A DNA stretch of 64,000 nucleotides from Gammaproteobacteria bacterium (GTDB lineage: Bacteria > Pseudomonadota > Gammaproteobacteria > Eutrophobiales > Eutrophobiaceae). A model generated the notes under the pieces. It was not told the origin of the DNA. It ran no database searches and was given only the letters and a program-made list of their open reading frames with translations. The position numbers and the translations under genes were made by a program. Positions 4,984 through 56,110 of this stretch are shown one piece after another. The stretch covers positions 3,022,378 through 3,086,377 of the forward strand of contig OZ251218.1 of assembly GCA_965240365.1 (NCBI GenBank). The letters are read 5' to 3'. Within the stretch, counting starts at the first letter, position 1. Each line of letters starts with the position of its first letter.

Positions 4984-5971
4984 TATACCTCCTTTGTTGT
5001 AATTCCAGTAAGTGTCCGGGTTCAATACCCAGGGTCATCTCATCTAAAATAAGGTGTCAGTTATCCTAGCCACGGTATCTTTAAGTATTGCTCATAATGC
5101 GCCTATTGCCCCCACCGTCATTTATGGACAGGAAGTCCTGTATGCGGCGACCTGCCTGCTGCAGGCAGGGAGGGCACGCCTACAAGGATGTACGCCTACA
5201 GGGACGTAGGTGGTAGAGCGGCGTCTGGAACAAGCCGCCGAGGTGGTAGAGCGGCGCCTGCCTGCAGCAGTCCGGATGAGATGGCCACCTCTTGTTGCGC
5301 GGCGTCTGAAGCGCCAAAATGAAGTTTTTACTTAACCTAAATGCACAAAAGAGGTGTCCGAGATGAAAGTGACTCTAATTGGTATTGATTTGGCAAAGAC
5401 TATTTTTCAGGTATGTGGAGTGAATCAGGTCGGCAAGCCGGTGTTTAACCGGACGATACGGCGTGCGGGTCTGTTGTCCTTTGTGAGCCGTTACCCGGAT
5501 TCGGTAGCCTGCCTGCAGCAGGCAGGTGGCGATGGAGGCGTGCGGGGGGTCGAATTACTGGGGACGTGAGTTGCAGAAGCGGGGCTATGAGGTGAAGCTG
5601 ATTCCGCCGCAGCATGTGAAGCCGTTTGTAAACCTGCCTGCAGCAGGCAGGGGGGAACAAGACCGACCGTCATGATGCTCTGGCGATTTGTGAGGCGGCC
5701 GGTCGTCCTGAGTTGCGGTGTGTTATGCCTCGCAGTGTTGAGCAGACTGACCGGCTGCTGGCGCACCGGCTGCGCCCTGCCTGCAGCAGGCAGGGAGCAG
5801 GCCGTAGGCGGGCGTACCCGGTTGGTGAATCAAATTCGGGGGTTGTTGCGGGAGTATGGCGTGGTGGCCTGCCTGCAGCAGGCAGGTGGCCCGTCGCTAT
5901 CTCGGCATGCCGTGGGCCGAGTGGCAGGCGCTGGATGCGCGTATTGCGGAGTTGGAGGAAGATACTAGTAA

Positions 5972-7063
5972 TTGCATAAGTATTCGCAGTGCATTATAAT
6001 TTGCTGCCATGAGCACAAGAATTGAATTACGTAATCAGAAACGCAAAGATGTTGTTGAAGCAATCGTTATCCGCCAAGAACCTGTTCATTTAGTTCGGCG
6101 GATATACAACCTGCCGGAACGCACGGTTTTCGACTGGCTGTCACGTTATCGGGCCGGCGGATGGGATGCGCTCAAGGAGGGCAAGCGTAGCGGCCGCCCC
6201 AGAAAGCTCAGCGCTGAGGACATGCAGTGGGTTTATAAGGCGGTGACAATGGGCAACCCGATGCACTATCAGTTTGATTTTTGTCTTTGGACTCTGGGCG
6301 TGTTAGGCACCCTGATCAAGCAAGCACGCGGTGTCAAGCTGAGCAAGAGCGCCATTAGTCGCTTATTGAGGCATCTGGGGTTGAGCGCGCAACGTCCGGT
6401 CTACAAGTCGTATAAGCAAGACCCGAAGCAGGTCAAGCGCTATCTTTCCAAGACGTTTCCTGAGGCCGTGGCACAAGCGAAGGCGATGGGCGCGCAACTG
6501 TTCTTTGTTGATGAGGCTTCGGTACGTAGTGATGCGCACCGGGGCGCCACCTGGGGCAAGCGAGGCGAGACACCGGTTATCAGAGACAGCGGTGGACGTT
6601 TTGGGCTTAATATGATGAGTGCCATTTCTCCACGGGGGGAGATGCGTTTCAGTTTCATTGCGGGAGGTATGAACTCAAGCCGGTTTATCCAGTTTCTAAA
6701 AAAGCTCCATAAGGATGCCGGCAAGCCCATTTTGGTCATCGTTGATAACGCCAAATATCACTACAGTAAGGAAACACGGCGCTTCCTTAAGCAACAAGAC
6801 GGCCAGATTTTGCTGACTTTCCTGCCAGCGTACTCACCGGAACTCAATCCTGATGAACAGGTTTGGAATCATGCCAAACACCAACTCAGTCAACGCCCTG
6901 TCTGGGATAAACACGATATGAAAAGGCACTTGTCAGCTATTTTGCATTCTCTTCAGAAACGCACGGGCTTGATCATGAGCTTCTTCAAAATGAAAAATAC
7001 GAAATATATCCTGGAAGTCTTCATATGAACTGCGATTATTTATGCAAGGATTAATATTAAGGC
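5972..7063 (+). mobile_element. IS630-family element nested in IS110 copy 1
   Basis: Imperfect terminal inverted repeats ...ATTGCATAAGTATTCGCAGT / ACTGCGATTATTTATGCAAGG...; inserted at a TA dinucleotide present once in uninterrupted IS110 copy 2. Confidence 0.6.
6009..7028 (+). CDS. IS630-family transposase
   Basis: 339 aa; HTH N-terminus and DDE region (FFVDEASV...VIVDNAKYH...YSPELNPDE). Confidence 0.85.
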   Translation: MSTRIELRNQKRKDVVEAIVIRQEPVHLVRRIYNLPERTVFDWLSRYRAGGWDALKEGKRSGRPRKLSAEDMQWVYKAVTMGNPMHYQFDFCLWTLGVLGTLIKQARGVKLSKSAISRLLRHLGLSAQRPVYKSYKQDPKQVKRYLSKTFPEAVAQAKAMGAQLFFVDEASVRSDAHRGATWGKRGETPVIRDSGGRFGLNMMSAISPRGEMRFSFIAGGMNSSRFIQFLKKLHKDAGKPILVIVDNAKYHYSKETRRFLKQQDGQILLTFLPAYSPELNPDEQVWNHAKHQLSQRPVWDKHDMKRHLSAILHSLQKRTGLIMSFFKMKNTKYILEVFI

Positions 7064-7410
7064 TCAGGTCAAGCAGGATGAGTCGGCGCGGCGTCTGGCG
7101 GGTATCAAGGGGGTGGGCCACTGATTGCCAGTGCGGCCGCCTGCCTGCAGCAGGCAGGCCACTATGCGGCCAATCTGGGACTGGTGCCCAGAGAGCACTC
7201 CAGTGGCGGCCGCCAACGGCTGGGAGGGATTACCAAACAGGGTAACCAGTATCTGCGCCGCCTGCTCGTCCAGGGGGCCTGGTCGGTCTTGCGCTATGCC
7301 GACCGCAGTGAAGACCGGCTGTCACGTTGGGCCAGACAGGTCACCTGCCTGCTGCAGGCAGGTGGCTCGCATCGGCAAGCATAAGGCGGCGGTGGCCGTG
7401 GCCAACAAGC

Positions 7411-7429
7411 CCTGCCTGCTGCAGGCAGG
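7411..7429. repeat. 19-bp hairpin copy present in IS110 copy 1 only
   Basis: copy1 CAAG-CCCTGCCTGCTGCAGGCAGG-TGGCCCGC vs copy2 CAAAC-TGGCCCGC (44296 region). Confidence 0.8.
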
Positions 7430-7567
7430 TGGCCCGCATCATCTGGTCAATGCTGTATCACGGCGCCGAGTACCGGCCGGCTTGAGACACGCGCACCGGC
7501 CCGTTTGAGGCAGAAGTAGAACGTACCCACCATAGGTTGCGATGAAGATATGAAGTAACAGCTTAGA

Positions 7568-7670
7568 CCTGCCTGCAGCAGGCAGGCCGGCCCCTGAAAC
7601 GCTGACTTACCTGCCTGCAGCAGGCAGGCCGGCCCCTGAAACGCTGACTTACCTGCCTGCAGCAGGCAGG
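7568..7670 (+). repeat. Tandem array (2.5 x 42 bp) of hairpin + 23-bp spacer inside IS110 right end
   Basis: Unit CCTGCCTGCAGCAGGCAGGCCGGCCCCTGAAACGCTGACTTA repeated at 7568, 7610, 7652(partial); copy 2 has a single unit. Confidence 0.7.
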
Positions 7671-7887
7671 CCCGACTGGGCTGAAAAGCACGAAGGCACG
7701 ATAGAGCGACAGGGGCGCGGTTCTCATTGAGGCCCGGGGACAATGATTCCCCAACACAGAGGCCGGATAGTCGTATGCAGTCTTATTTTACCGTTATTGA
7801 ATAATCAGCTTGCAAACTACGAGGTGTACATATAGGCCGAAATAACAGAGCGGATTGCCGGCAGTCTGTTTTTCATATACTCCCCGC

Positions 7888-16674: not shown

Positions 16675-17484
16675 TTATATATCATCAATCAATTTAATAC
16701 AATATACTAGACGCAGGACTCGCTCAAGAGTCTCTGCCCCTTTTGGATTGTTGAACTTATTGGTATTACCTAACTCTCGTTGCAACGCTCGGCCAAGGAT
16801 CCTTACGCAATCGTGGCCACAGCAAAGCGATTTTTTCTCTTCGATCCGATCAAGTTCTATTTTGATCAATTTTAAAATATTAACCTCTGTTTCTTTTGGT
16901 CGCTTCTGAGACCGACTAACAACATGCTGAACGGTTCTAAGCTTGTCCAATTTAAACGAGCTTTGATGATTGAAACGATAAGTCATCCCGCTAAACTTTA
17001 AGTACCAAGAATCTCTTTTCGAGAGATAGCGGAATGCTCCACAGAAAGATGCTGCTTCAAAGATCAGATCACAGACATCTTTGCCCGAAGCCTCTACTGC
17101 ATTCACGCGATCTTTAACTCCAAATTCGCGCAAGACGTTCTCAAGTGCGGGGGAGCATAATATCATTATTTCGATGTCGTTCTCATCTGAGTAAACTACC
17201 GAGCCCTTGTGTGCAGGATATCCAATCAAGTCAGAAAAATCCTTGTCAGCAAGACCCAATGCTCCACGAAATCCCGAATTCTCCAGAATGGTAATTGCTT
17301 CAATAAGGTTCTTACGCCCAATACAGACGATGATTGAGCATCGATCGGCATCGCAGAATTTACGAAATAGATTCGCGTCACTACTGCCTTCTACGAGCAA
17401 GAAGCTACCATCATGCAACGCTCCTTCAAGACGAATTTGGTTAGCCAATGTTGCTCCACTTATCTCAGCGCGGATACTGCTCAT
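16675..17484 (-). CDS. AriB-like DUF4435/TOPRIM nuclease (PARIS-like effector)
   Basis: 269 aa; TOPRIM catalytic layout: conserved Glu (LLVEGSSD) then DxD (GLADKDFSD); 7-nt gap after ATPase gene; low GC (~42%). Confidence 0.6.
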   Translation of the reverse strand: MSSIRAEISGATLANQIRLEGALHDGSFLLVEGSSDANLFRKFCDADRCSIIVCIGRKNLIEAITILENSGFRGALGLADKDFSDLIGYPAHKGSVVYSDENDIEIMILCSPALENVLREFGVKDRVNAVEASGKDVCDLIFEAASFCGAFRYLSKRDSWYLKFSGMTYRFNHQSSFKLDKLRTVQHVVSRSQKRPKETEVNILKLIKIELDRIEEKKSLCCGHDCVRILGRALQRELGNTNKFNNPKGAETLERVLRLVYCIKLIDDI

Positions 17485-17491
17485 GACTTGA

Positions 17492-18865
17492 CTATACCAC
17501 CAGCTCTTGGACCAAATCCCATCTGTCGTGGATAATTTGAGGAGAATGGGTCGCGATAATCACCTTCATTTTCTTAATCTCTTGAATCTTTTGCAGATCA
17601 GAGATGAAATTTTTTTGCCACGCAACATGCAATGACAGCTCTGGCTCATCTACGAGAATCAAAGAATACTCTTCTACTTTGAAGAGTAAGTCGTAGATGA
17701 GCACAAGTTCATGTTGCTCGCCCGATGAAAGATCCGAGAGCGGAATTCCAGCGCCCGTGTTACTGTCTTCAGCTCTGATACCTCTTTTGGGATCAATCGC
17801 AATCTTCTTGAAAGAAAAATGCTCATCCAGAATTTGCTTGAAGAGCCTGATCTTGGCATAGGCTTCATCGAAGATGCCGAGCTTCTTTTCGGTATCTTCG
17901 ACATATATTGCAAGAATTCTTCGGATGCTCTCTTCTTGAAAGATGTCTGAAGGTTGAATTGATTCGCTAATCGTTTGTCCTAGAAGTCCGACAGACACAA
18001 GATCATCTCGTTTTTGGGTCAATTCTTGAAGACTCTCACGAATTTCTGATTCGTCACTGACAGGTTCAGCACGAAATTCAATTATCCTTTTGGGAAAAGT
18101 CTGGTCGAGTTTTTGCGATTCGTTTGCATACTCCTGAAGCAGTCTGCCAATCCTCTCAGCAAGATCAGTTGCGTCTTTTTCCACAACAGGCGGTGGAGTA
18201 AAACGTGCATACCTTCTAGGGCGTCGGTTATCCTCCTGCTCCTCAAGATAAAGCAAACGTTACGTCTCAATCAGATGAGTATCGACAGACGCAATCGCGT
18301 CTTGAAGCCACTCCGGAAGTTTCAATGAATCAAGAAGTTTTTGAGGTAGTCGGTCAGCATATAGCTCGATGATCTGATCTGTTGCAAAGGTTCTACCTTG
18401 ATGGAAGTCATGCCAAAGATCAGGTCCGATCTGTTCTACCGGAAAGCGATGTTCAAAGTATCTCAAATCCGGCAACGAAAAATCTGCAGCAAGCAAATAT
18501 AGCTCTTTGTCAGCGCCAAAACCAGTTGCCTTAATCGACACAGCCCTTTTTTCTCTAATCTCCTCACTATCAATGAGACCACCTTCATCCTTAAGAATTG
18601 ATATTTGCTTTCCAGAAGATAGCTGAAACACGATTTTTTCAAAACTGATCTTCTGGAAGAAACCAAGTTTCCGATTAAAAAACGAGTCTATAATTCTGAG
18701 CAGAACCGTTTTGCCATAACCGTTTGGGGCAGTGATTATTGACACATATTCCTCTTCACCAAATCTCAATTTGTAGTTAAAACGCCGAAATAGGTTTCGA
18801 ACAGTAAGTGACAAGAGTTGCTCTGGTTTCTGGCCATTGATCATTTTGTTGCTCATTTCTCGCAC
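17492..18865 (-). pseudogene. AriA-like ABC/AAA_15-21 ATPase interrupted by in-frame TAA
   Basis: Walker A ITAPNGYGKT (N-half 18263..18865), ABC signature LSDLSSGEQ, Walker B LILVDEPELSLH, H-loop IIATHSP (C-half 17492..18256); both halves in one frame separated only by TAA at 18260..18262. Confidence 0.65.
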
Positions 18866-22388: not shown

Positions 22389-23369
22389 TTGGGCTTCAAG
22401 ATGACAAGTTTAACCAGTTATTTCAATGATATAGATGATCCTCGTTCTGGCAACGCGCCGCGCCACAAGTTTTGCGATCTGATGACAATCCGTCTTTTGT
22501 GCGCCCTGTGTGGTGGGGAGACGGCGGTCGATATGGAAAATTTCGGCAATATGAAGGAGGATTTCTTACGGGAATTTCTCGAATTGCCCCATGGCGTACC
22601 TTGCCATGATGCGTATTCACAATTGTTCAGGTTGATGAAACCGGCGAGCTTCCAGACGTTTTTCGACAAGTTTCGCGCCGACTTCGCCGCCGGGCGTGGA
22701 GAGGAAGCAGCTATCGCGATTGACGGCAAAGAGATGCGGCGCCGCTTCGATAAGGCGATGGAACAGTCGAATCTAAACATGGTAACGGCCTTTGCGCATG
22801 GTGCGCGGCTGACCCTTGGGATCACTCAAAGCGCCAAGGGGGTGGTGAGATATTGGCCCCGCGTGAGTTGGTTGAGATGCTCGATATTCGTGGCATCACT
22901 ATCACCGCTGATGCGTTACATTGCCAGCGTGAGACCTGCGAATTGATCGTAGGGGAAGGGGGAGATTATTGCCTGCAACTCAAAGGCAACCAGGGCGATA
23001 TGCTGGCGGATGTACAGGCCTTTGTCAAAGATCAGAACATTGATTTCATTGATGAATATAAATCAACTGACGCGGATCATGGCCGTATCGAAGAGCGATC
23101 ATATCGCGTTTACGATGTCCCGAACTCTCTGGCCGAGAGGCACGATTGGCCGCACCTGCCTGCTGCAGGCAGGTCTGCAGGCCTTCGTTCAGGTCATCTC
23201 AAAACGTGAGGCAGGCGGCAAAACCAGCCACTCCGAGAGGCTGTATTTGATGTCAAAACGCCCCACAGCTCAACACGCCGCAACTCTAATCCGCGGCCAC
23301 TGGCAGATCGAAAACAGCTTGCACTGGTCGCTCGACGTTGTCATGGCCGATGACCATCACCGTGCCTGA
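22389..23369 (+). pseudogene. ISAs1-family transposase, frameshifted and hairpin-interrupted
   Basis: DIDDPRSGNAPRHKFCDLMTIRLLCALCGGE... (H-repeat/ISAs1 N-term) and ...HWQIENSLHWSLDVVMADD (C-term); frame change near 22850-22946 and 19-bp hairpin at 23155. Confidence 0.6.
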
Positions 23370-30456: not shown

Positions 30457-31387
30457 ACCAGCAAGAGCAACATTAGGATTGATTCCGAAAAATACCTGAT
30501 TAGGTGTTTTCATGCCAAGGCATTTTCGAGGTCGGTTATTTAATTTATCCATAGCCATTTTAATCTCCTGTTCAGTGATGGTGGTAAAGTCTCTGTTCCT
30601 GGGGAAGTATTGGCGTATCAGGCCGTTGGTATTTTCGTTGAGTCCGCGTTGCCAGGAGGCATAGGGGTGAGCGAAATAAAAGGTCGCATTGAGCGCTTTG
30701 GCAATGGCCTGATGGCGCGCAAACTCCCTGCCGTTGTCAGAAGTCAGGGTATGGACATTATCAGACAAGGGAGCAAGCTGTTGCAAAATAGCGGCCTTGA
30801 CCGTATCCGCTTCCTTGCTGGCGACCCTGGCAATCAACGTCAGGCGCGACTTACGCTCAGTCAGGGACACGAGGGCCTGTTTGTGCCCCTTGCCAATAAT
30901 CGTATCCAATTCCCAACCTGCCTGCTGCAGGCAGGTCACCCAATCGGGCACGTCTGTCGACGATGGCGGGTCGCTCATCAATGGAAACGCGGCCAGACCA
31001 CTGGCCACGGCGGCTAAAGTGACCGTAGCGCTTCCTGCGCCGCTTCTGGCAACGCAGGCGACGGTACAGGTCGCCGCCTTGCTGTTTGTCCCGCAGAATA
31101 TAGCGATAAATCCACTCATGGCTAATCCGAAGGCGCTTTTCCTGAGCCAGCCAGAGGCTGACCTGTTCCGGGCTCCAGTCCTCACGCAGCAAGGCTTCAA
31201 CCCAGTCCCAATGGCCGGGTTGAATGCGCACCTTAGCCTTTCCCTGCCGGCGGGTCACGGCCAGCCGTTCGGCCTGCTGCGGACGATAGCCGCAGAGGCC
31301 ACGGTTGCGCCTCAACTCACGGCTTATGGTGGATTTGTGAACCTCAAGGATACGGGCTGTCTCAGTTTGATTATGGCCTGCTTTCAT
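30454..31387 (-). pseudogene. IS30-family transposase (frameshifted)
   Basis: MKAGHNQTETARILEVHKSTISRELRRNRG... HTH, C-terminal ...LNENTNGLIRQYFPRNRDFTTITEQEIKMAMDKLNNRPRKCLGMKTPNQVF; two overlapping ORFs. Confidence 0.65.
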
Positions 31388-31558
31388 AAGGGCGCCTGCC
31401 TGCTGCAGGCAGGTAAATCGGGTATCGTTGCTCCTGGGTGAGCTGTGTGTATTGTCTCATCGATGCTTCTCATTCTTGCCAGAACAAAAAGCAGAGATAC
31501 TACCGCAGCTCGCCTCCTGTTCCGAGTTATGAGTTGCACTTACGAGTTGAATTCACGC
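30457..31558 (-). mobile_element. IS30-family element copy 1 inserted in paaK-like gene
   Basis: Imperfect terminal IRs GTGGATTCAACCAGCAAGAGCAAC... / ...GAGTTGCACTTACGAGTTGAATTCACG; transposase (30454..31387) frameshifted, 2 hairpin copies inside. Confidence 0.6.
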
Positions 31559-32325
31559 AATTTAATAGACGCAATAAAGCTGGTGTGCATGGCTCCGATA
31601 CCGTCATAGATGCGTGCTCCGCCCCAAAGAGCGGAGATACGGTTTCACACTTCGTCGATCGATCCGCCGGGTTCGCCTGCCAGAGAAATCCTCTCAAAAC
31701 CAAGACCTGCCGGATCGACCCCGTGTTTATCGCGCAATTCCTCGCCCATCCAGATGGCGTAGGACGGTGTGCAGTTCAATTGCTTGGGCCTTACCTGCCG
31801 TGCGACAACGGCGAAGTTCTCAGGCCCGCTCTTCCCACCGATCGGCACCACCGTTAATCCCGCATCCTGCATCACATCGGCCCCCGGCATGCCGGCAATC
31901 CACATCGACATGACGAAAGCGTGCATCACCTCCATGCACCGTTTCATAATCTCGGCGCTCAAAACACTGTCCCGGCGGGTATAGCCGGTGAATGTCGGTG
32001 TCCCGGTCGTGCCAGACGTCGAACTGATGTGCGTGACATCACGCGGATCGCACACAATGTGCATGCCTAGCGTATGCAGCCTCTTTTCCCAGGAAGCACG
32101 CTGGCTTTCGCGTTCAATGGATTTATCCATAAACGGCACCGCGCCAAGATCGCCGAAGCTTCGGATCATGTCGGGATGGATACCTGCATCGTCAAAACGT
32201 TTCCGATGGAAATCCGATTTTTCGTAAACAAGATTCAACTGGGTTTTCAACTTGGCGAACCTGTAGTCGTCAAGCCGGGGCCGATCCACGAAACCGCGTT
32301 CAGGGCTGTAAAACGGGCTGAGCAT
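31559..32325 (-). pseudogene. Phenylacetate-CoA ligase-like (PaaK family), N-terminal part with in-frame TGA
   Basis: ...HISSTSGTTGTPTFTGYTRRD...ISLAGEPGGSIDEV*NRISALWGGARIYDGIGAMHTSF then IS30 IR; TGA at 31645..31647. Confidence 0.6.
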
Positions 32326-32410
32326 TGCGTCCTCCAGAACCGCCAGCCCATACCTTTGGTTGACTGACTACGAAGCTTGTGACATAAAATAATAAATATC
32401 ATACTAAAAT

Positions 32411-33760
32411 TCATTGCTGTCCCATTAACAGGGAATAAAAAGGCCTGATTCCACTGAGATTGATATAATGAGTTTGCTAAAAAACGCTGTATCAATAAGG
32501 AGAATCAGGCCGTGGCACATTGTAATACGATTTTTTCACAAATACTAAAGTTTGTTCCGAGACATGAATTTGAATCTCTGGCGAAGCGGCATCACTTGGG
32601 TCGGGCGTTCCGGAAAACTTCGCGTTGGCCTGCCTGCTGCAGGCAGGTCGCAATTTGTGTGGATGGCGATGGCACAATTGTCTGGCCGAATCAGTCTGCG
32701 CGATATTGTGGACAATCTTTCGGCACAGGCCCATCGTTTGTATCATCCAGGCAGTTCGAAGCCATCACATTCTACCTTGGCACGTCTTAACGAAGAGAAG
32801 CCCCATGCGCTTTATGAAGCCCTGTTTGGGAAGTTACTGAGTCGCTGTCAATGTGTTGCTCCGGGGTATAATTTTCGCTTCAAGAATCCGCTGTATTCAT
32901 TGAATGCGTCGATGATTGACCTGTGTCTCGCGGTATTTCCATGGGCGGATTTTCGAACGAGCAAAGGCGCCATTAAGCTGCATATTGGTTTAAACCATCG
33001 GGGTTATTTACCGGAATTTGTGACGATTACGGAAGGGAAAACGCACGACCTGCCTGCAGCAGGCAGGTAAAATGGTCGGTAGGACATTGCAATTTCCAAA
33101 GGGCAGTATTGTGGCAGTGGACCGCGGTTACAATTACTACAGCTGGTATAAGCAACTGAATGCTAAAGGTATCTTTTTCGTAACCCGCTTGAAGTCGAAT
33201 GCGAAGGTGCGTGTTGTTGCGCGCCGACCTGCCTGCTGCAGGCAAGTGTGTGGTCAAGCAGAGGAATGTGACGAGTGACCAGACGATCAAATTCACGGGA
33301 GTGCGTGCCCAAAAGAGGTGTCCGATTGGATTACGTCGAATCGGTTACCGGGAGCCAGTAACGGGCAAACGTTACGTGTTTCTGACGAACAATTTCAAGC
33401 TGTCGGCACAGACGATAGCGGATATATATAAATCACGCTGGCAGGTTGAATTGTTTTATAAATGGGCCTGCCTGCTGCAGGCAGGTCAAGCAAAATTTGA
33501 AGATCAAGGCGTTTATGGGCACGAGTAAGAATGCGGTGTTGACCCAGATATGGATTGCAATGTGTGTTTACTTGTTGCTGGCGTATTTGAAGTTTCAATC
33601 AAAGGTAACGAGAAGCTTGCAACAAATTCTGCGATTGCTACAACTGAATTTGTTCGAGAAACGCGATCTGACCGCCTTGCTTAACGGTGACCCACCCCAG
33701 ACACGCTGGGAAACTGATCGTCAAATAACACTGCTATGAAAGTTAATGGGACAGCAGTGA
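32411..33760 (+). mobile_element. IS4-family element
   Basis: 18-bp terminal IRs CATTGCTGTCCCATTAAC (32411) / GTTAATGGGACAGCAGTG (33743); transposase carries 4 hairpin insertions. Confidence 0.65.
32512..33739 (+). pseudogene. IS4-family DDE transposase broken by four 19-bp hairpin insertions
   Basis: ...VAVDRGYNYYSWYKQLNAKGIFFVTRLK...YKSRWQVELFYKW...GTSKNAVLTQIWIAMCVYLLL; hairpins at 32629, 33049, 33228, 33467 each shift the frame. Confidence 0.65.
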
Positions 33761-33871
33761 CTAAAATTATAATAAATACGACGTCAATAAAAAATAATTG
33801 TGACATCAATGTCAAATTTGTCGACGGACACGGGAGGAAACAGAATGTCGCCGCGATTGAAAAAAGCCTTA

Positions 33872-34748
33872 GGGCGTAGACCTATAAACAAGTAACAGTT
33901 AAAATGGCGGCAAGATAAAAAACTCAGGAGGTTTCAATGTCTCTAAATTTCTGGTTAACGAAAGAGCAGTTCAAAAAAATCCAACCATTGCTACCGAACA
34001 AGCCGCGTGGCGTTGCCCGCGTGTGCGATAGACAAGTCTTGTCAGGCATCATCTATTGTCTTCAGCGGGGATATAGGTGGAGTGATGTTCCCGAGGAATA
34101 CGGCCCGGCCAAGACGCTCTACAATCGCTACAGGCGCTGGTCTGAGGCGGGTGTGTTCGAACGCATATTCAAGGCTTTAGCAGGTGAGGGCGCAGACTTC
34201 AGCACGCTGATGATTGACACGAGCCACATCAAAACCCACCGGATTGCCGCCAATGGTGTAAAAAAAACAACAGTCAGGGGCGAGCCATCGGCAAGACCAG
34301 GGGTGGCTTGAATTCCAAACTGCATCTGGTGTGCGATGGTCAGGGCCGCCCTGTCCATCTGCACCTGACGGCGGGCAACCGGGCTGACCTGCCTGCAGCA
34401 GGCAGGTATTACCCAGGCCCGTCACTGCCTTGAGGGTCATGTGCGTAAGGGCTGCACCGTTATTGCCGACCGTGGATACGATGCCAATCATCCCTGCCTG
34501 CTGCAGGCAGGTGCGTAACTGGCTGCTCAAGGCCGAAGCAACAGCCTGCATCCCACCCCGCAAAAACCGTAAGGTGCAGTTCGAATACGACACCGAGCTC
34601 TATAAAACACGCAACATCATTGAGCGCATGTTCAACCGCATCAGGGACTGGCGCCAGTTGTCCCTTCAAACCTTCCGATGTCCCGAGACGTTCCTCGCTG
34701 CCGCACAACTCGCTGCTATTGTGATCTGGTTATTATGAGTCTACGCCC
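33872..34748 (+). mobile_element. IS5-family (IS427/IS1031-type) element, copy A of tandem dimer (877 bp)
   Basis: IRs GGGCGTAGAC / GTCTACGCCC; orfA 33937..34311 + A8 slippery run + orfB; carries two hairpin copies (34388, 34493). Confidence 0.65.
34493..34511. repeat. 19-bp hairpin copy present in IS5 copy A only
   Basis: copy A AATCAT-CCCTGCCTGCTGCAGGCAGG-TGCGTAACT vs copy B AATCACC-TGCGTAACT. Confidence 0.8.
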
Positions 34749-34750
34749 TA

Positions 34751-35608
34751 GGGCGTAGACCTATAAACGGGTAATAGGTAGAATGACTGTAAGATAAAAA
34801 ACTCAGGAGGTTTCAATGTCTTTAAATTTCTGGCTGACGGAAGAACAGTTCAAAAAAATCCAACCATTGCTACCGAACAAGCCGCGTGGCGTTGCCCGCG
34901 TGTGCGATAGACAAGTCTTGTCAGGCATCATCTATTGTCTTCAGCGGGGATATAGGTGGAGCGATGTTTCCGAGGAATACGGCCCGGCCAAGACGCTCTA
35001 CAATCGCTACAGGCGCTGGTCTGAGGCGGGTGTGTTCGAACGCATATTCAAGGCTTTAGCAGGTGAGGGCGCAGACCTCAGCACGCTGATGATTGACACA
35101 AGCCACATCAAAACCCACCGGATTGCCGCCAATGGTGTAAAAAAAACAACAGTCAGGGGCGAGCCATCGGCAAGACCAGGGGCGGCTTGAATTCCAAACT
35201 GCATCTGGTGTGTGATGGTCAGGGCCGCCCTGTCCATCTGCACCTGACGGCGGGCAACCGGGCTGACCTGCCTGCAGCAGGCAGGTATTACCCAGGCCCG
35301 TCACTGCCTTGAGGGTCATGTTCGTAAGGGCTGCACCGTTATTGCCGACCGCGGATACGATGCCAATCACCTGCGTAACTGGTTACTCAAAGTCAAAGCA
35401 ACAGCCTGCATCCCACCCCGCAAAAACCGCAAAGTGCAGTTCGAATATGACACCGAGCTCTATAAAACACGCAACATCATTGAGCGCATGTTCAACCGCA
35501 TCAGGGACTGGCGCCAGTTGTCCCTTCGAACTTTCCGATGTCCCGAGACGTTCCTCGCTGCCGCACAACTCGCTGCTGTTGTGATCTGGTTATTATGAGT
35601 CTACGCCC
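34751..35608 (+). mobile_element. IS5-family (IS427/IS1031-type) element, copy B of tandem dimer (858 bp)
   Basis: Same IRs; separated from copy A by TA; 19 bp shorter than copy A because it lacks the second hairpin. Confidence 0.65.
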
Positions 35609-35691
35609 TAGTGAGCCCGCTGCTCTTGAGAGACCTCCGCGACTGCGCGTGCTCTAAATCCAGCACGATCTCTCAAACACACTAGGAGTTT

Positions 35692-36483
35692 CTAATTGTA
35701 TAGTCCCGCAGTGTGCTGAAGTGGATTAATGATAAACCGTTCAGGTTCCTTTTGCCACCCTTCAATGACTTTTTCGTAGGGTGTCAGCCCTTTTAAGGTT
35801 TTTAGACGTTTGCCGAAGTTATACGCCTTCAGGAAAGTCTGTAGGTGGGCTTTGAGTTGCGCATGTGCGCCGTAGTGATAGCGCTTGACGGTGGCCTCTT
35901 TGATAGTACGGTTCATGCGTTCCACCTGGCCGTTGGTCCAGGGGTGGTTAATTTTTGTGAGCCGGTGTTCAATGTCATGTTCTTGGCAAACACGGTCAAA
36001 GAGGTGCATAGATGTCGGTTTATCCTGTTTGTGGTGGGTAAATTGAGCGCCGTTATCGGTCAGGAGGGTGTGTATTTTGTAAGGCAGGGCCGCAATGACA
36101 TTTCTCAGGAACTGTACCGCGGTCATCTTCTTTTTATCCGTGTGTAGTTCGGTGTAGGCCAACTTACAGGTGCGGTCGATAGCCACAAAGAGTTGCAGTT
36201 TACCTTGTTATGTTTGCACTTCAGCGATATCGATGTGGACATAGCCAATAGGATATTTCTTGAACTTCTTCTGCACCGGCTTCTCCCCTTCGACCTCGGG
36301 CAGGCGGCTGATACCATGACGTTGCAGGCAGCGATGCAGGGAAGAGCGTGTCAGATGCGGGATCGTGACCTGCAGGGCATACAGGCAGTCATCCAGAGGC
36401 AACAACGTATGCTTGCGGAAGGCCACAACCATAGCCTCCTCTGCCAGCGATAAGCTGGTGGAGCGTGGCTGTTTCGGCCCCAT
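35692..36483 (-). pseudogene. IS481-family transposase with in-frame TAA
   Basis: HTH N-part ...KKYPIGYVHIDIAEVQT*QGKLQLFVAIDRTCKLAYTELH... rve core C-part; TAA at 36208..36210; 5' region additionally carries a degenerate hairpin at 36541. Confidence 0.6.
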
Positions 36484-36694
36484 TTTTGCGTCATGGACAA
36501 AATCACGCCGCTTCCATTTCGCTACCGTTGCGGGGTTCAGGTCTGCCTGCTGCAGGCAGGTTATAGCGCTTCGCCAATTTGGCTATGCTCTCTTGACTAT
36601 TTTGTATTGCTCGACGCACCACCTCAGTCGTTGTGGCGCTGCCGTGTAGTATTTGGCCCATAGCTCCTCCTTTGTTGGTATAGCAGAATAACTT

Positions 36695-37453
36695 ATGTTA
36701 TCACACTGCGGGACCTTACATCTAATGACTTATTATGACGCGCGTCGGGGGCGATTGCCCGGCGTTGCGGGCCTGTGGCTATGCTTGCTGTTCGTGGTGA
36801 TTTCCATGATCATTGCGAGCGGGGCCGCCGCCCATAATGTCACGCCCGGAGATGCGGACTATATCCAGGAAATCTGGGGCATCAAATTCATCCCGTTCAT
36901 GTATTTGGGGGCCAAGCATATGGTCACTGGATACGACCACATCCTGTTCCTGTTCGGGGTGGTGTTCTTTCTCTATAAGCTCAAACATGTCACGCTTTAT
37001 GTGACCTTATTTGCGGTCGGTCATTCCACCACCATGTTAGTGGGCGTGGCATTTGGCTGGGATGTGAATGCCTATATCATCGACGCTATTATCGGCCTGT
37101 CCGTGGTCTATAAGGCGCTCGACAATATGGGGGCCTATCAGCGTTGGTTCGGCTTCCAGCCCCATACCAGGGTGGCGACGTTGATTTTTGGCCTGTTCCA
37201 CGGTTTGGGGTTGGCGACTAAAATCCTCGAATACCGGATTGATCCGGAAGGATTGCTGGTCAATCTGATCGCCTTCAATATCGGTGTCGAAATCGGCCAG
37301 GTTCTGGCCCTTTGCCTGATCCTTATCGTTATGGGGTTCTGGCGACGTACCGACGGTTTTTTCAAACACGCTTATTCCGCCAATGTGGTGATGATGTCCG
37401 CAGGCTTCGTGCTGATGGGCTATCAGATCGCCGGTTACCTGACAGCTACTTAG
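36695..37453 (+). CDS. HupE/UreJ-family Ni/Co transporter
   Basis: Signal peptide then H..GAKHMVTGYDHILF signature; 6 TM; true start may be an internal Met. Confidence 0.65.
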   Translation: MLSHCGTLHLMTYYDARRGRLPGVAGLWLCLLFVVISMIIASGAAAHNVTPGDADYIQEIWGIKFIPFMYLGAKHMVTGYDHILFLFGVVFFLYKLKHVTLYVTLFAVGHSTTMLVGVAFGWDVNAYIIDAIIGLSVVYKALDNMGAYQRWFGFQPHTRVATLIFGLFHGLGLATKILEYRIDPEGLLVNLIAFNIGVEIGQVLALCLILIVMGFWRRTDGFFKHAYSANVVMMSAGFVLMGYQIAGYLTAT

Positions 37454-42018: not shown

Positions 42019-42500
42019 GTGGATTCAACCAGCAAGTGCAACATTAGGATTGATTCGGAAGCTCTGAATAAATCCATCCTGGACTTACCTGCCTGCAGCA
42101 GGCAGAGCTTCAAAATCAATGACTTACGTCATTAATTTTGGCGGTACGTCCCTGTGCCGCAGGAAGCTCTGATTCAATCAGAGCTTCCGTTCCGAAAAAT
42201 ACCTGATTAGGTGTTTTCATGTCAAGGCATTTTCGGGGTCGGTTATTTAATTTATCCATAGCCATTTTAATCTCCTGTTCAGTGATGGTGGTAAAGTCTC
42301 TGTCCTTGGAGAAGTATTGGCGTATCAGGTCGTTGGTATTTTCGTTGAGTCCACCTGCCTGCAGCAGGCAGGCGTTGCCAGGAGGCATAGGCCTGCCCGC
42401 TGCAGGTGGGGGTGGGCGAAATAAAAGGTCGCATTGAGTGCTTTGGCAATGGTCTGATGGCGCGCAAACTCCCTCATGGACCCCGATGTGCTGGCCAAAC
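42019..42500 (-). pseudogene. IS30-family copy 2, 3' fragment with a 136-bp MITE-like insert
   Basis: IR GTGGATTCAACCAGCAAGTGCAAC; insert 42057..42192 bounded by GGAAGCTCTGA direct/inverted repeats; two extra hairpins at 42354 and 42392 absent from copy 1. Confidence 0.55.
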
Positions 42501-42789
42501 AATCGTGTGATGCGCGTAGCAAAGGTTAGATGCTGTCTCTCAATGACGTTTCCGATGGGCTGTCTGCCCTCGCGGCCCCTATTCTCAATACGAAAGGGGA
42601 CTTAATTGCGGCCGTTTCGCTTGGGGGGCTGACCCCGCAGATAGATACGGGATCACCACCTGATTTGCTGGCACCGCTGTTGGATTGCACCCGTGCTCTG
42701 AGTGCGTTCTACCAGAGTCAGGGGGATAATCTTCCGCTATAGTTCACTTAATGAAATTATAATTGCATATTGACATATTTTCGATGCAC

Positions 42790-43268
42790 TCCTAAATTCT
42801 TACGTGAATTCAACTCGTAAGTGCAACTCATGACTCGGAACAGGAGGCGAGCTGCGTTAGTATCTCTGTTTTTTGTTCTGGCAAGAATGAGAAGCATTGA
42901 TGAGACAAAATACACACAGCTCACCCAGAGGAGCAACGATACCCGATTTACCTGCCTGCAGCAGGCAGGCGCCCTTATGAAAGCAGGTCATAATCAAACT
43001 GAGATAGCCCGTATTCTTGAGGTTCACAAATCCACTATAAGCCGTGAGTTGAGGCGCAACCGTGGCCTGCGCGGCTATCGTCCGCAGCAGACTGAACAGT
43101 TGGCCGTGACCCACCTGCCTGCATTGCCAGAAGCGGCGCAGGAAGCGCTGCGGTCCTTTAGCCGCCGTGGCCAGTGGTCTGGCCGCGTTTCCATTGATGA
43201 GCGACCCGCCATCGTCGACAGGCGTGCCCGATTGGGCGACCTGCCTGCAGCAGGCAGGATGAGATGGT
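42790..43268 (+). pseudogene. IS30-family copy 2, 5' fragment (opposite orientation), truncated by IS110
   Basis: MKAGHNQTEIARILEVHKSTISRELRRNRGLRGYRPQQTEQLAVT...; ~190-bp internal deletion replaced by half-hairpin (43113..43123); ends at hairpin 43250..43268 where IS110 copy 2 begins. Confidence 0.55.
43250..43268. repeat. 19-bp hairpin abutting IS110 copy 2 left end
   Basis: CCTGCCTGCAGCAGGCAGG|ATGAGATGG; the equivalent hairpin (mutated arm) abuts copy 1 at 5257..5275. Confidence 0.8.
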
Positions 43269-44665
43269 CACCTCTTGTTGCGCGGCGTCTGAAGCGCCAA
43301 AATGAAGTTTTTACTTAACCTAAATGCACAAAAGAGGTGTCCGAGATGAAAGTGACTCTAATTGGTATTGATTTGGCAAAGACTATTTTTCAAGTGTGTG
43401 GAGTGAATCAGGCCGGCAAGCCGGTGTTTAACCGGACGATACGGCGTGCGGGGGTTCGAATTACTGGGGACGTGAGTTGCAGAAGCGGGGCTATGAGGTG
43501 AAGCTGATTCCGCCGCAGCATGTGAAGCCGTTTGTAAACCTGCCTGCAGCAGGCAGGGGGGAACAAGACCGACCGTCATGATGCCCTGGCGATTTGTGAG
43601 GCGGCCGGTCGTCCTGAGTTGCGGTGTGTTATGCCTCGCAGTGTTGAGCAGACCGACCGGCTGCTGGCGCACCGGCTGCGCCCTGCCTGCAGCAGGCAGG
43701 GAGCAGGCCGTAGGCGGGCGTACCCGGTTGGTGAATCAAATGCGGGGGTTATTGCAGGAGTATGGCGTGGTGTTGCCCAGGGGAAGGGGGCGCTGGAAAC
43801 GGGCGCTGCCGGCCTTGCTGGAAGACGGTGAGCATGGCTTGACAGTTACCTGCCTGCAGCAGGCAGGGGGGCCGTCGCTATCTCGGCATGCCGTGGGCCG
43901 AGTGGCAGGCGCTGGATGTGCGTATTGCGGAGTTGGAGGAGGATATTAAGGCCTAGGTCAAGCAGGATGAGTCGGCGCGGCGTCTGACGGGCATCAAGGG
44001 GGTGGGGCCACTGATTGCCAGTGCGGCCGCCTGCCTGCAGCAGGCAGGCCACTATGCGGCCAATCTGGGACTGGTGCCCAGAGAGCACTCCAGTGGCGGC
44101 CGCCAACGGCTGGGAGGGATTACCAAACAGGGTAACCAGTATCTGCGCCGCCTGCTCGTCCAGGGGGCCTGGTCGGTCTTGCGCTATGCCGACCGCAGTG
44201 AAGACCGGCTGTCACGTTGAGCCAGACAGGTCACCTGCCTGCAGCAGGCAGGTGGCTCGCATCGGCAAGCATAAGGCGGCGGTGGCCGTGGCCAACAAAC
44301 TGGCCCGCATCATCTGGTCAATGCTGTATCACGGCGCCGAGTACCGGCCGGCCTGAGACACGCTCAGGCCCGTTTGAGACAGGAGTAGAACGTACCCACC
44401 ATAGGTTGCGATGAAGATATGAAGTAACATCTTAGACCTGCCTGCAGCAGGCAGGCCGGCCCCTGAAACGCTGGCTTACCCGACTGCAGCAGGCTTACCC
44501 GACTGGGCTGAAAAGCCCGAAGGCACGATAGAGCGACAGGGGCGCGGTTCTCATTGAGGCCCGGGGACAATGATTCCCCAACACAGAGGCCGGATAGTCG
44601 TATGCAGTCTTATTTTACCGTTACTGAATAATCAGCTTGCAAACTACGAGGTGTACATATAGGTC
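43269..44665 (+). mobile_element. IS110-family element copy 2 (transposase 43346..44340 disrupted)
   Basis: Left end ATGAGATGGTCACC directly after hairpin; same architecture as copy 1 but without IS630, with a different set of hairpins/deletions. Confidence 0.6.
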
Positions 44666-47588: not shown

Positions 47589-47713
47589 TTAGTCATACCT
47601 CCGAAAACAGCTTGTTTGAGTGGGCGCGGCCGGTAATTCCGTTGCGATGGGTCCGGTTTTGAGCGCGCGGGCGGCGTCACTATCCGGGCAAAAGACGGGT
47701 CGGGCCGGGCGCT

Positions 47714-49375: not shown

Positions 49376-49559
49376 GCGCCGTGTTTATTTCACCCCTATC
49401 GTTAATGGTTATGAATTATGACCACAACGTCATCATAATTTCAGGCCGCCTGTTTTTAATTCAGTATTCGGCGGACAACCGATAGAAACGAACACCATCC
49501 GCAATCCTATCTGGCGTCAATTTGTATTGACGCCCATTAAGACTTCATTTTTGTAATTA

Positions 49560-50340
49560 TAACCGATTTGGCATGTATTGCTTGATTTTGTTGCGTCATT
49601 TATCCAACGCCGTCATTCCGGCCCATCGCAGAGGCAGGCGAAAGTCGGAATTCCAACCGGCACGGTAGGGCAGGCAGAGCCGGAATCTATTTCACATCCC
49701 GGCAGACCTTTCCTGGATTCCAGCTTTCGCTGGAATGACGACGGGGGCAGGAATGAAAAGACAGCAGGGAGTCAAAAGGAGCGGGAATAACAGAGGCCAG
49801 AATAACTTTGAAGGTCAACGGGCCGTATCTATCACCTACGTCGTCATTCCGGCGAAGGCCGGAATCCAGTGGCTTATGTCATACATTCCCGCTTAAGCGG
49901 GAATGACAATCAAATGCGTTATTTCAACCGGCACGGTAAAGCAGACAGAGCCAGAATCCATATCACATCCCGGCAGACCTTTCCTGGATTCCGGCCTTCG
50001 CCGGAATGACGACGAGGGAGTAAATAACAGAGGGGGTCTGAAAGATACCCGGCTACGCCCCTGCCGTCATTCCGGCCGGCACGGTAAGGCAGGCAGAGCC
50101 GGATTGCATTTCGCCCCCCGGCCCCGCCCTCCTGGATTCCAGTTTCCGCTGGAATGACTACGGGGGTGGAATGGAAAAGAGGGCAGAGGACCAAAAGGAG
50201 CGGCAGTGACAGAAGCCGGAATAACATTGAAGACCAACGAGCCGTATCTATCACCTACGTCGTCATTCCAGCGAAAGCTGGAATCCAGTGGTTTATATAC
50301 TACATTCCCGCGCAGCGGGAATGACAACAGAGGAGGGCGG
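49560..50340. repeat. Composite intergenic repeat array (two ~419-bp higher-order units)
   Basis: Hairpins of three kinds: ATTCCCGC-N4-GCGGGAAT, TCATTCC(A/G)GCGAAAGC(T/C)GGAATCCAGTGG, TGGATTCCAGCTTTCGCTGGAATGACG. Confidence 0.7.
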
Positions 50341-55199: not shown

Positions 55200-56110
55200 C
55201 CTATTGCCTACGCCGGAATGACGACGAAGGAGTAAATAACAGAGGGGGGTCTGAAAGATACCTGGCTATGCCCCCACCGTCATTCCAGCGAAAGCTCGCC
55301 TGCATGGATGCAGGTGGTAGAGCGGCGTCAGGAACAGGCCGCCGAGGAATCCAGTGGTTTATACAATCCATTCCCGCAAAGCCCTGCCTGCAGCAGGCAG
55401 GGGGAATGCCATTTTGACTGGTTTGGTACACGCAGACAGGGCCGGATTCTATTTCGCTCCCCGGCATCGCCTCCCTGGATTCCAGCTTTCGCTGGAATGA
55501 CGTCAGGGGCGGGAATGAAAGAGATGGAAGAGTACCTAAAAGGAGTGGCAAGAAACAAAAAGCCTCGTCATTCCGGCCTTCGCCGGAATGACGACGAGGG
55601 AATAAACAACAGAGGGGAGTCTGAAAGATACTTGGCTACGCCCCCACCGTCATTCCAGCGAAAGCTGGAATCCAGTGGTTTATACAATCCATTCCCGCAA
55701 AGCGGGAATGCCATTGTGGTTGGTTTGGTACAGGCAGACAGGGCCAGATTCTATTTCGCTCCCCGGCATCGCCTTCCTGGATTCCAGCTTTCGCTGGAAT
55801 GACGTCAGGGGCGGGAATGAAAGAGATGGAAGAGTACCTGAAAGGAGTGGCAAGAAACAAAAAGCCTCGTCATTCCGACCTTCGCCGGGCGGCTACGGGC
55901 ATCCTGCCCTCACGCCACATACAGGACATCCTGTCCATAAATGACGACGAGGGAGTAAACAACAGAGGGGGGTCTGAAAGATACCTGGCTACGCCTCCAC
56001 CGTCATTCCAGCGAAAGCTCGCCTGCATGGATGCAGGTGGTAGAGCGGCGTCAGGAACAGGCCGCCGAGGAATCCAGTGGTTTATACAATCCATTCCCGC
56101 AAGGCGGGAA
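55200..56110. repeat. Composite intergenic repeat array between fhcB and autotransporter
   Basis: Same unit families as 49560..50340, ~300-bp higher-order periodicity; one ATTCCC..GGGAAT hairpin carries the 19-bp palindrome in its loop (55383..55401). Confidence 0.7.

Follow-up and report, generated by a model that had tools for sequence, protein, structure and literature searches.

Why do both copies of an IS110-family insertion sequence (IS) in one stretch of bacterial chromosome begin directly after the same 19-bp palindrome? The 64,000-nt stretch analysed here, the whole of which is referred to as the window, is chromosomal DNA of an uncultured gammaproteobacterium, and the palindrome is CCTGCCTGCWGCAGGCAGG, a perfect inverted repeat of 9+1+9 bases whose right arm is AGGCAGGTCGGG and whose last seven nucleotides are AGGCAGG. 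It is very probable that the IS abuts the palindrome because a guide RNA, which would be encoded downstream of the transposase gene, fits the palindrome end, and that the palindrome is an independent and older insert. The adjacency would arise because AGGCAGG, the sequence matched by one segment of this putative guide (Y, described below), is the end of the palindrome.

The following features of the window define the two insertions and their comparison sites.

5276..7834, plus strand: IS110/IS1111-type element, copy 1 (dead relic), with left end 5276-5362 and non-coding right region 7486-7834
5257..5275: degenerate palindrome CCTGCCTGCAGCAGTCCGG, the putative left target of copy 1, whose closing GG (5274-5275) would be the core dinucleotide
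7835..7836: duplicated GG core at the right junction of copy 1, assigned by the three-state comparison given below
43259..44661, plus strand: IS110/IS1111-type element, copy 2 (dead relic)
43240..43258: perfect 19-bp palindrome, the putative left target of copy 2, inside the IS30 fragment 42760-43258
30917..30935: unoccupied palindrome in the other IS30 copy (30457-31469, minus strand), at the same IS30 position as that of copy 2 and without IS110
55310..55345, plus strand: repeat GGTGGTAGAGCGGCG/TCAGGAACAGGCC, ground state without palindrome or IS; second example at 56033-56068

The original prediction stated that both copies adjoin the palindrome on their left, which is confirmed at 5275/5276 and 43258/43259; the second junction is real, and the interval 43250..43280 once given for it was a few bases off. 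In copy 1 the sequence reads ...CCTGCCTGCAGCAGTCCGG/ATGAGATGGCC (a slash marks the junction here and below), or ...GCGGCGCCTGCCTGCAGCAGTCCGG/ATGAGATGGCCACC in longer context, with the palindrome remnant at 5257-5275 and the IS from 5276. The corresponding reading in copy 2 is ...CCTGCCTGCAGCAGGCAGG/ATGAGATGGTC, or ...GGGCGACCTGCCTGCAGCAGGCAGG/ATGAGATGGTCACC in longer context, with the perfect palindrome at 43240-43258, the IS from 43259 and a GG core directly after the IS at 44662-44663. Nine junctions were compared in total, namely those of the two window copies and of seven intact copies (L001 and L108-L113) from ENA assemblies of this organism or of a close relative. Eight of the nine (copies 1 and 2, L001, L109-L113) adjoin the palindrome, with a left side of ...GCAGGCAGG/ or a degenerate form of it; the palindrome is perfect in copy 2, L109, L111 and L113, and degenerate in copy 1, L001, L110 and L112. 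The proposed check of further copies thus favoured the prediction, six of the seven fetched copies starting directly after a palindrome (degenerate forms counted) and the seventh, L108, lying at a palindrome-like site: its left flank AAGCTGGTAGG matches CAGCAGGCAGG at 8 of 11 positions, and its right flank matches its own guide variant. In all nine cases the CATATA that ends the IS is followed by GG and then by a YCGGAAT-like sequence. With 35 palindrome copies in the window there are approximately 70 palindrome edges among 64,000 positions, so that a coincidence has a chance of about 1e-3 per insertion and the adjacency calls for explanation.

Direct adjacency in eight of the nine copies would also be expected if the palindrome were the true left terminus of the element and were carried along whenever the IS moves. 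This explanation is highly improbable in view of the absence of a palindrome on the left of L108, of the differences among the adjacent palindromes (centre A, T, C or G; 0 to 4 mismatches), of about 30 palindromes elsewhere in the window with no IS110 beside them, and of the relatives, which share the terminus ATGAGATG and not the palindrome. Insertion targeted to the palindrome is supported both by the eight abutting junctions and by the palindrome sites that carry no IS.

The order of the two insertions can be read from three states found within one repeat family. In the first, represented by the GGTGGTAGAGCGGCG/TCAGGAACAGGCC repeat at 55310-55345 and 56033-56068, there is neither palindrome nor IS; in the second, the palindrome is present alone, with a single GG before insertion (positions 8552-8570 of L218, an ENA assembly of a sister strain); and in the third, the palindrome is followed by the IS and then by GG-TCGGGAACAGG (L113). 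Since all three states occur in one repeat family, the series indicates that the palindrome arrived first and that the IS recombined at its terminal GG, which then came to stand on both sides. Similarly, in L109 the IS has entered a small repeat that carries a palindrome, of a kind that lies unoccupied at 34-52 of the window, and both L109 and L113 show collinear flanks together with the GG duplication. The empty site of copy 1 is not comparable in the sister strain, in which the region downstream of ligA is rearranged.

The reverse order, in which an IS without any preference arrives first and the palindrome inserts beside its left end afterwards, is favoured by the frequency with which the palindrome enters this IS (at least nine internal sites) and by its general liking for IS DNA. 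It is nevertheless very improbable, as palindromes without IS occur at the very same positions (30917 versus 43240 in IS30; 8552 of the sister strain versus L113) and the GG core is duplicated at the right of the IS, as recombination at the palindrome end predicts. In addition, AGGCA in guide segment Y corresponds, in relatives with other targets, to the respective left-flank sequence, and those relatives are inserted with equal precision in other palindromic repeats that lack this 19-mer.

Copy 2 had been placed inside an IS30 element, which applies to its left flank only: on the right it is followed not by IS30 but by the right half of the L113 flanking repeat. Either two IS copies have recombined to give copy 2, or its surroundings have otherwise been rearranged. 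These chimeric flanks, together with a second IS30 copy that is scrambled with palindromes at its breakpoints and with palindrome-bounded deletions and duplications inside the IS, would suit an explanation in which homologous or illegitimate recombination at abundant palindromes moved the IS copies there without any targeted transposition. Such a process would leave the guide-flank covariation described below unexplained, and all copies share one junction position to the base and retain an intact IS terminus, with L109 and L113 as simple insertions that have collinear flanks and GG duplication; recombination is thus very unlikely to be the source of the pattern, if slightly less so than the reverse order, and guided insertion at the palindrome end remains the preferred reading.

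The element itself is 1,348 bp long and consists of an 87-bp left end, a gene for a 337-aa DEDD transposase and a downstream non-coding region of about 270 nt; we assign it to the IS110 family, with an organisation like that of the IS1111 group. The window copies align from their junctions to ...GGTGTACATATA at 7834 and 44661 with 94-98% identity apart from insertions and deletions. Neither has an intact reading frame, and both are pseudogenes with the following structure.

5363-7485, plus strand: transposase pseudogene of copy 1, with palindromes at 5508, 5633, 5776, 5868, 7140, 7344 and 7411
5965..7053, plus strand: intact IS630-family element inside copy 1 (open reading frame (ORF) 6009-7028, DDE_3), without palindrome
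43346-44356, plus strand: transposase pseudogene of copy 2, with palindromes at 43539, 43682, 43849, 44030 and 44234 and a 77-bp deletion after 43452

The gene of copy 1 is further broken by deletions of 75 bp and 40 bp and by the IS630-family insertion. Deletion of its 19-mers yields 184 uninterrupted residues of an IS110-type transposase, and the protein rebuilt from both copies led to an intact 337-aa homologue with 92% identity (P0001, present in L001 and L108-L113), which served as the intact reference protein. The domains PF01548 (N-terminal, DEDD/RuvC-like) and PF02371 (C-terminal, Transposase_20) are found in both the reconstructed window protein and P0001, and the latter scores 346 bits against the NCBIfam model NF033542 'IS110 family RNA-guided transposase' (cut-off 140) and has remote similarity to the transposases in the solved IS621 and ISCro4 structures. 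As in the IS110 family, long terminal inverted repeats and a multi-bp target duplication are both absent, and just the 2-nt core is repeated at the two junctions. The element begins with ATGAGATGG... and ends with ...GTACATATA, with GG on either side (the first core base differs between the sides in some relatives), and its subterminal inverted repeats ACACCTC(TT) and (AA)GAGGTGT, of about 8-10 bp, are separated from the termini by extensions of approximately 9 nt on the left (ATGAGATGG) and 6-7 nt on the right ((C)ATATA). If joined, the ends would form a plausible junction promoter, TTGCAA-17 nt-TAGGAT, with GG between the ends; TTGCAA is conserved in the alignment of relatives, and transposition may proceed via a circle. 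The left end also contains an inverted repeat, CACCTCTTGT...ACAAAAGAGGTG (5286-5295 with 5346-5357; in copy 2, 43269-43278 with 43329-43340), which overlaps the ribosome-binding site and could mask the start codon in read-through transcripts. No match to the left end was found in GTDB representative genomes.

The evidence for a guide RNA comes from relatives of 60-69% protein identity, found in Shewanella denitrificans and many metagenomes and representing 73 distinct junctions. They share the ends ATGAGATG(A/G)ACACCTC and GAGGTGTACATATA, but their targets differ: most are inserted at one conserved position of another palindrome resembling repetitive extragenic palindromic (REP) sequences, ...ACAnGGATG/TGTAC..., and smaller groups are located at CAGGACTG/CGTACGAGG, CAGGGACTG/CGTTTGAAAC or AAAGAGTG/TGTCTGTCC. 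Their downstream non-coding regions align well and adopt a common fold with covariation (51 relatives), in which a long stem, P1, surrounds an internal loop capped by a small hairpin, and a second module is formed by a GGCC/GGCC stem with a variable hairpin. For the 28 pairs of this structure, 95.7% of alignment cells are paired compared to 88.0% in shuffles, double changes occur in 115 cells compared to 32, and the covariation score is 0.264 compared to 0.121, a value reached by 0 of 500 shuffles; with slid 3' partners the score is at most 0.08.

The strands of the internal loop are the variable parts of the fold and track the flanks. Read from the base that directly follows CATATA, the right flank is matched in reverse complement by the 5' loop strand, X, and the bases that end the left flank recur in the same orientation in the 3' loop strand, Y. 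In the IS studied here, Y is GAAGGCACG against the left flank GCAGGCAGG and repeats the palindrome end AGGCA-GG, and X is CCCGACCG and variants, complementary to the right flank GG-TCGGG. The target would thus be AGGCA-GG-TCGGG, composed of the last 7 nt of the palindrome and about 5 nt of flank. Across at least four target classes, and also within the subfamily of this IS, the guide segments shift with the target.

Y AGGGA(C/T)G with left flank ACAGGGATG; X CAAGTACA with right flank TGTACTTG
Y AAGGACCG with left flank CAGGACTG; X CTCGTACG with right flank CGTACGAG
Y GAGAGTG with left flank AAAGAGTG; X GGACACAC with right flank GTGTGTCC
Y AAGGCACG with left flank CAGGCAGG (this IS); X in the subfamily variants that follow
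X CCCGACC with right flank GGTCGGG (L113)
X CCCGCC with right flank GGCGGG (L108)
X CCGGCT with right flank GGCCGG (L110)
X segment GCAAGCAC, tracking right flank GTGCTTGC
Y segment CAGGGATG, tracking left flank CAGGGATG

A crude permutation test, in which flanks were swapped among elements 500 times, gave a mean longest match between right flank and loop of 5.86 nt, compared to 4.60 +/- 0.11 nt after permutation (maximum 4.93), and for the left flank 5.57 compared to 4.95 +/- 0.12. In the second module, CTCAT is complementary to ATGAG of the left end, and GGATATACG is similar to ACATATA of the right end plus core; every relative conserves both, as expected of a donor loop. Loops corresponding to both half-sites and both ends, characteristic of IS110-family RNAs, are therefore found at the level of sequence, and the right non-coding region is supported as the source of a bridge/seekRNA-like guide RNA, which would presumably be produced and bound by the transposase.

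These results also separate the parts of the original prediction that concerned guidance. The idea of a bridge RNA gained support from the guide-flank covariation and from a structure with compensatory base changes. Both ends had been named as candidate guide regions, which is borne out for the right end, whose segments covary with the flanks; the left 87-bp end contains no covarying segment, only the subterminal repeat, a small hairpin and the ribosome-binding site. The sizes proposed for the ends needed adjustment, from about 85 bp to 87 bp (5276-5362) on the left and from 7460..7845 to 7486-7834 on the right, where the native length is about 270 nt. A hairpin had been suggested as the target, which holds for the sequence AGGCA-GG-TCGGG and fails for the hairpin as a structure, the L108 site having no palindrome. 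Since the complement of a palindromic target looks like the target, the palindrome in the right end could reasonably pass for the guide itself; however, the intact copies L108, L109 and L111-L113 lack it there, and L110 has acquired it as a clean insert of 19 bp within stem P1, with TTAGA before it and CCGGCC after it.

Further insertions have occurred in L001 and in the window copies, including recombination between insertions at IS positions 1160 and 1183, the latter within guide X, and the guide RNA appears to be disrupted in both window copies, as is the transposase gene.

7556..7775, plus strand: guide-RNA relic of copy 1, with the P1 5' strand at 7556-7567 and the P1 3' strand at 7710-7722
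7568-7586, 7610-7628 and 7652-7670: palindrome insertions in this relic
7671-7700: target loop of this relic, with X CCCGACTG at 7671-7678, the capping stem-loop at 7678-7691 and Y GAAGGCACG at 7692-7700
7723-7732 and 7761-7775: putative donor guides of this relic, X' CTCAT and Y' (mutated), respectively
44357-44661: guide-RNA relic of copy 2, with a palindrome at 44437-44455, a flank-templated variant at 44479-44497, X at 44498-44505 and Y at 44519-44527

The mechanism that we propose would operate as follows. In the target loop, X would pair with the top strand of the right flank and Y, identical to the top strand, with the bottom strand, and the donor loop would read the element ends, CTCAT for the left end and GGATATACG for the right end plus core. 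The IS would then recombine at the GG that closes the palindrome wherever a YCGGR-like flank follows, leaving the whole palindrome at its left and a duplicated GG at its right. The palindrome would enter as an exact 19-bp unit and has since entered each window copy 6 to 10 times. Its insertions have interrupted the transposase frame and also, in stem P1 and guide X, the putative guide RNA, and recombination among adjacent palindromes would have given rise to local deletions and duplications.

Several observations weigh against this reading. Agreement between guides and flanks extends over 5-8 nt only and is imperfect: 2 of the 9 positions of Y deviate from the left flank, the CG of Y faces a GG or TG core, the left flank of L108 is a poor match to Y (3 of 5 central bases), and X is only partly matched by the right flanks of L111, L001 and copy 1. 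The palindrome arm beside copy 1 is degenerate, with GTCCGG instead of GGCAGG, and several of the nine junctions are located in one repeat family, so the sampling is not fully independent. The subterminal repeats are shorter and the terminal extensions longer than those described for IS1111 elements. No Rfam family covers the RNA (intact copy, E up to 5), the likeness to seekRNA and bridge RNA being one of layout only, and in the Rfam scan of the window only two tRNAs reach gathering scores. Moreover, the whole case is built on sequence comparison.

Known RNA-guided elements provide a useful frame for these features. Members of the IS1111 group with a downstream seekRNA, such as ISEc11 and ISXne4, have been described (Siddiquee et al. 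2024, PMC11187229); they possess subterminal inverted repeats of 11-13 bp with extensions of 7 bp on the left and 3 bp on the right, and their seekRNA presents the top-strand complement first and the bottom-strand segment second (PMC11187229). The present element resembles them in its DEDD transposase, in its layout, with 87 nt upstream and about 270 nt of non-coding DNA downstream of the gene, in the order of a top-strand-complementary segment before a bottom-strand one (X before Y), in its subterminal inverted repeats and in natural reprogramming between relatives; it differs in the lengths of repeats (about 9-10 bp) and extensions (about 9 and 6-7 bp), and in a target, deduced here from sequence, that is the end of a 19-bp palindromic insert. 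The bridge RNA of IS621 (IS110 group), attributed to Durrant and colleagues in 2024, is reportedly a guide RNA with two loops, one for the target and the other for the donor. Compared with IS621 (structure PDB 8wt6), our element likewise appears to have a two-loop guide, each loop with left and right half-site guides around a 2-nt core that ends up on both sides of the inserted element. In contrast to IS621, in which the RNA lies in the left end and the core is CT, the RNA here would lie 3' of the transposase gene and the core is GG (TG in relatives), and the protein similarity is distant (E = 2e-7 over the C-terminal half).

Insertion of IS110-family elements into REP sequences is said to have been reported by Tobes and Pareja in 2006. 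Such REP-targeting elements include ISPpu9, ISPpu10 and ISPa11 (PMC12288879). The element studied here shares with them a fixed position in a short and abundant palindromic repeat; unlike REP targets, this palindrome is not confined to extragenic space and is inserted inside ISs, including this one. The relatives of this IS (L114-L217, from marine and sediment metagenomes and Shewanella denitrificans) are mostly located at ...ACAnGGATG/TGTACTCGTG..., and the whole clade appears specialised on palindromic repeats. The IS itself is a further member of a known family, and what is unusual is a target palindrome that also destroys the IS. The IS and its relatives offer a natural and well-resolved case of guide reprogramming in an IS1111-like branch. 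The targets of about 50 related guide RNAs are known, and this set, which is useful for engineering 3'-encoded bridge/seekRNA recombinases, assigns loop positions to the flank positions that they read. An RNA-guided IS would here have adopted a second repetitive element as a safe harbour.

The palindrome deserves attention in its own right. With at most one mismatch, the 19-mer occurs 35 times in the window compared to 0.00 expected from dinucleotide-preserving shuffles, at locations that include 34-52, 5151-5169, 23155-23173, 30917-36560, 42088-42969, 55383-55401 and 63108-63126, and each copy is an exact 19-bp insertion without target duplication. All window copies lie in IS relics, small dRS3-like repeats or intergenic DNA; the relics concerned belong to at least five families and are the IS110 copies, two IS30 copies, an IS4-like gene, IS5-like genes and an ISAs1-like gene, and another copy is found in a putative transposase ORF (36211-36697) with no Pfam match. 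No palindrome is present in the window's housekeeping genes (uvrC, pgsA, ligA, zipA, tripartite ATP-independent periplasmic transporters and genes of one-carbon metabolism) or in its intact IS630-type and IS5/IS1182-type elements. Two of these contexts are particularly clear.

32464..33736, plus strand: IS4-like transposase gene with palindromes at 32629, 33049, 33228 and 33467; deletion of all four gives a 399-aa ORF
55383..55401: palindrome in the loop of a dRS3-like repeat (ATTCCCGCAAAGC/GGGAAT), with the same arrangement at 63108-63126 and a related repeat at 34-52

In the dRS3-like repeats the palindrome lies at the boundary of loop and stem. Insertion into DNA hairpin loops holds for these repeats and was rejected as a general rule, the 11 IS110 sites having no common predicted fold. 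Dense small palindromic repeats like Neisseria dRS3 (ATTCCCGCnnnGCGGGAAT, TTCCAGCGAAAGCTGGAA) are clustered with the GGTGGTAGAGCGGCG/TCAGGAACAGGCCGCCGAGG repeat at 49600-50330, 55200-56120 and 61650-63130, and these clusters supply preferred contexts for both the palindrome and the IS.

Mapping of the window IS copies against the intact copy L111 as reference revealed exact 19-bp insertions at IS positions 232, 338, 462, 610, 997, 1045, 1160 and 1183, with at least nine palindrome sites inside the 1.35-kb IS in total, and deletions of 75 bp, 40 bp and 23 bp, each bounded by a palindrome. A 42-bp unit (palindrome plus 23 nt) is triplicated at 7568-7670 in copy 1, present approximately twice in copy 2 and collapsed in L001; the extra length of the right end in copy 1 is due to three palindrome insertions together with this triplication. 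Neighbouring palindromes thus appear to drive local duplication and deletion, including the 75-bp and 40-bp deletions in the transposase gene. The gain is nested: none in five intact IS copies, one in L110, a recombined pair in L001, six or seven in copy 2 and at least nine in copy 1. The simplest reading is that insertion is frequent and largely indiscriminate, that it is purged from useful genes and active IS lineages, and that it accumulates in dead copies. Dead ISs contain one palindrome per 120-300 bp, more than the remaining non-coding DNA of the window does, so ISs or repeated DNA may also be preferred.

An identical short palindrome in assemblies of many unrelated organisms, with a PstI site in it, might raise the suspicion of an adapter or a chimera, that is, of a sequencing or assembly artefact. 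This is extremely unlikely for a sequence whose window copies avoid housekeeping genes altogether and are limited to IS relics, repeats and intergenic DNA, which is found across different sequencing technologies and assemblers, and whose sites are common to separate loci and assemblies, with nested gain, point variants and palindrome-bounded deletions; in addition, the guide RNA of the IS would have evolved to match it.

Several details bear on its insertion and subsequent change. When sites are oriented by the centre A, the preceding base is A in 25 of the 35 window sites, and several insertion points carry a substitution within 1-3 nt in comparison with L111. A strand or orientation bias was considered and rejected: the centre base is roughly balanced on the plus strand and differs even at a site shared by the two copies (7344-7362 with T, 44234-44252 with A). 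Since centres differ at this one shared site, the palindrome centre can flip or mutate after insertion. In the variant CCCGACTGCAGCAGGCTTA at 44479-44497 of copy 2, both arms are replaced by copies of their own flanks (GGCTTA/CCCGAC), and all five substitutions bring the arms closer to the flank sequence, suggestive of templated repair or conversion. Removal of the palindrome at the RNA level, which would restore function, was also rejected, both copies containing palindrome-bounded deletions; one palindrome is read through in frame by chance. In the sister strain, copies at 1246, 4285, 6090, 9020, 12144, 18061 and 18814 mostly have variant centres (GCGGC, GCCGC) or single arm mismatches, and the palindrome family diversifies within the species. 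The second IS30 copy (42119-43258) is scrambled, with its C-terminal piece at 42119-42473 on the minus strand, its N-terminal piece at 42760-43258 on the plus strand and palindromes at or near its breakpoints (42088, 42354, 42392).

The closest known repeats are REP elements and their REPIN arrangements, which are mobilised by REP-associated tyrosine transposases (RAYTs, of the Y1 type) and are the subject of PMC3116915 and PMC3733652. Like them, the palindrome is short, GC-rich, non-coding, often at or in hairpins and of high copy number (35 in 64 kb versus 0); unlike them, it is only 19 bp long and perfect, has a single-base centre and is inserted exactly into transposase genes without duplication. 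It also departs from REP/REPIN elements in location, tag and doublets: most copies lie within IS coding sequence, no GTAG or CGTC tag is found in their flanks and there are no regular doublets, the sole tandem array being the 42-bp triplication in the IS. Small palindromic inserts in coding sequences include the Rickettsia palindromic elements and mitochondrial GC clusters, the former being inserted in frame into functional genes. Both are longer than the present 19-mer, which causes frameshifts and is seen only in DNA that was already dispensable.

Beyond this organism, the 19-mer was found in more than 106 GTDB species genomes of many phyla, often at the tip of other palindromic repeats, and at least three loci of other genomes have it inside a transposase or integrase gene, the ORF of which is restored once the 19-mer is deleted. 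Cross-phylum spread was rejected as proof of horizontal mobility, as composition-matched control palindromes also occur and much of the distribution may represent convergent GC-rich hairpins: in IMG/VR two controls were found in 1 and 3 contigs, compared to 7 for the 19-mer. Because the controls are only 2-7 times rarer in viral contigs, the wide distribution is suggestive of horizontal spread rather than proof. Mobilisation by a Y1/RAYT enzyme was also considered and gained no support, since the only Y1 gene found (1590-2030 of L001) is an ordinary IS200-like gene with unrelated hairpins of its own; a search that covered the window, related loci (53 kb) and the surroundings of palindromes in other phyla (741 kb) detected no RAYT/Y1 gene flanked by palindromes. 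Clustering of 1,570 ORFs from 106 loci of other phyla gave housekeeping families only, and no gene family shared beside the palindromes was retained as a candidate. Searches of the literature for this sequence, or for palindromic inserts of 19 bp, returned nothing relevant.

It is possible, although we regard it as doubtful, that the palindrome represents a new ultra-small mobile DNA that enters as an exact unit, is mobilised by an enzyme or by a host replication or repair route, favours ISs and other repeats and disables transposons, and that the IS110 guide has been retuned to it. As part of the same tentative proposal, its insertion rate might lie within an order of magnitude of the total point-substitution rate, the window IS110 copies differing by 2-3 palindrome insertions compared to roughly 40 substitutions. 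In the strongest form of this proposal, palindrome insertion may serve as host-directed silencing of insertion sequences. An exact 19-bp insert that saturates and inactivates ISs (at least nine sites per 1.35-kb IS, and four in the IS4-like gene) was not described in the literature found. If it is mobilised by a dedicated enzyme, that enzyme would be one not yet described, and if it is spread by host replication or repair, it would be a new source of frameshifts and of local deletion and duplication; either way, the palindrome would shape which transposons stay alive in this genome.

With regard to the host, its LigA is 98% identical to that of the sister strain and approximately 65% identical to those of named relatives. 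Genes of the tetrahydromethanopterin-dependent one-carbon pathway are present, and the host looks like a methylotrophic or methanotrophic gammaproteobacterium. In the window, genes for formate dehydrogenase-like and formylmethanofuran dehydrogenase-like proteins (GXGXG, Amidohydro_3) and for a formyltransferase (Ftr) are located at 45720-55013 and 63151-63987, and the L113 locus contains a gene for methenyl-tetrahydromethanopterin cyclohydrolase. A PARIS-like defence pair is encoded on the minus strand at 16675-18865, with AriB (DUF4435) at 16675-17484 and the AriA ATPase split into two ORFs (17492-18256 and 18260-18865), so AriA may be disrupted. Finally, a 1,658-aa ORF on the minus strand (56116-61092), with about five tandem repeats of approximately 300-420 nt (57555-59535), probably encodes a repetitive surface protein.

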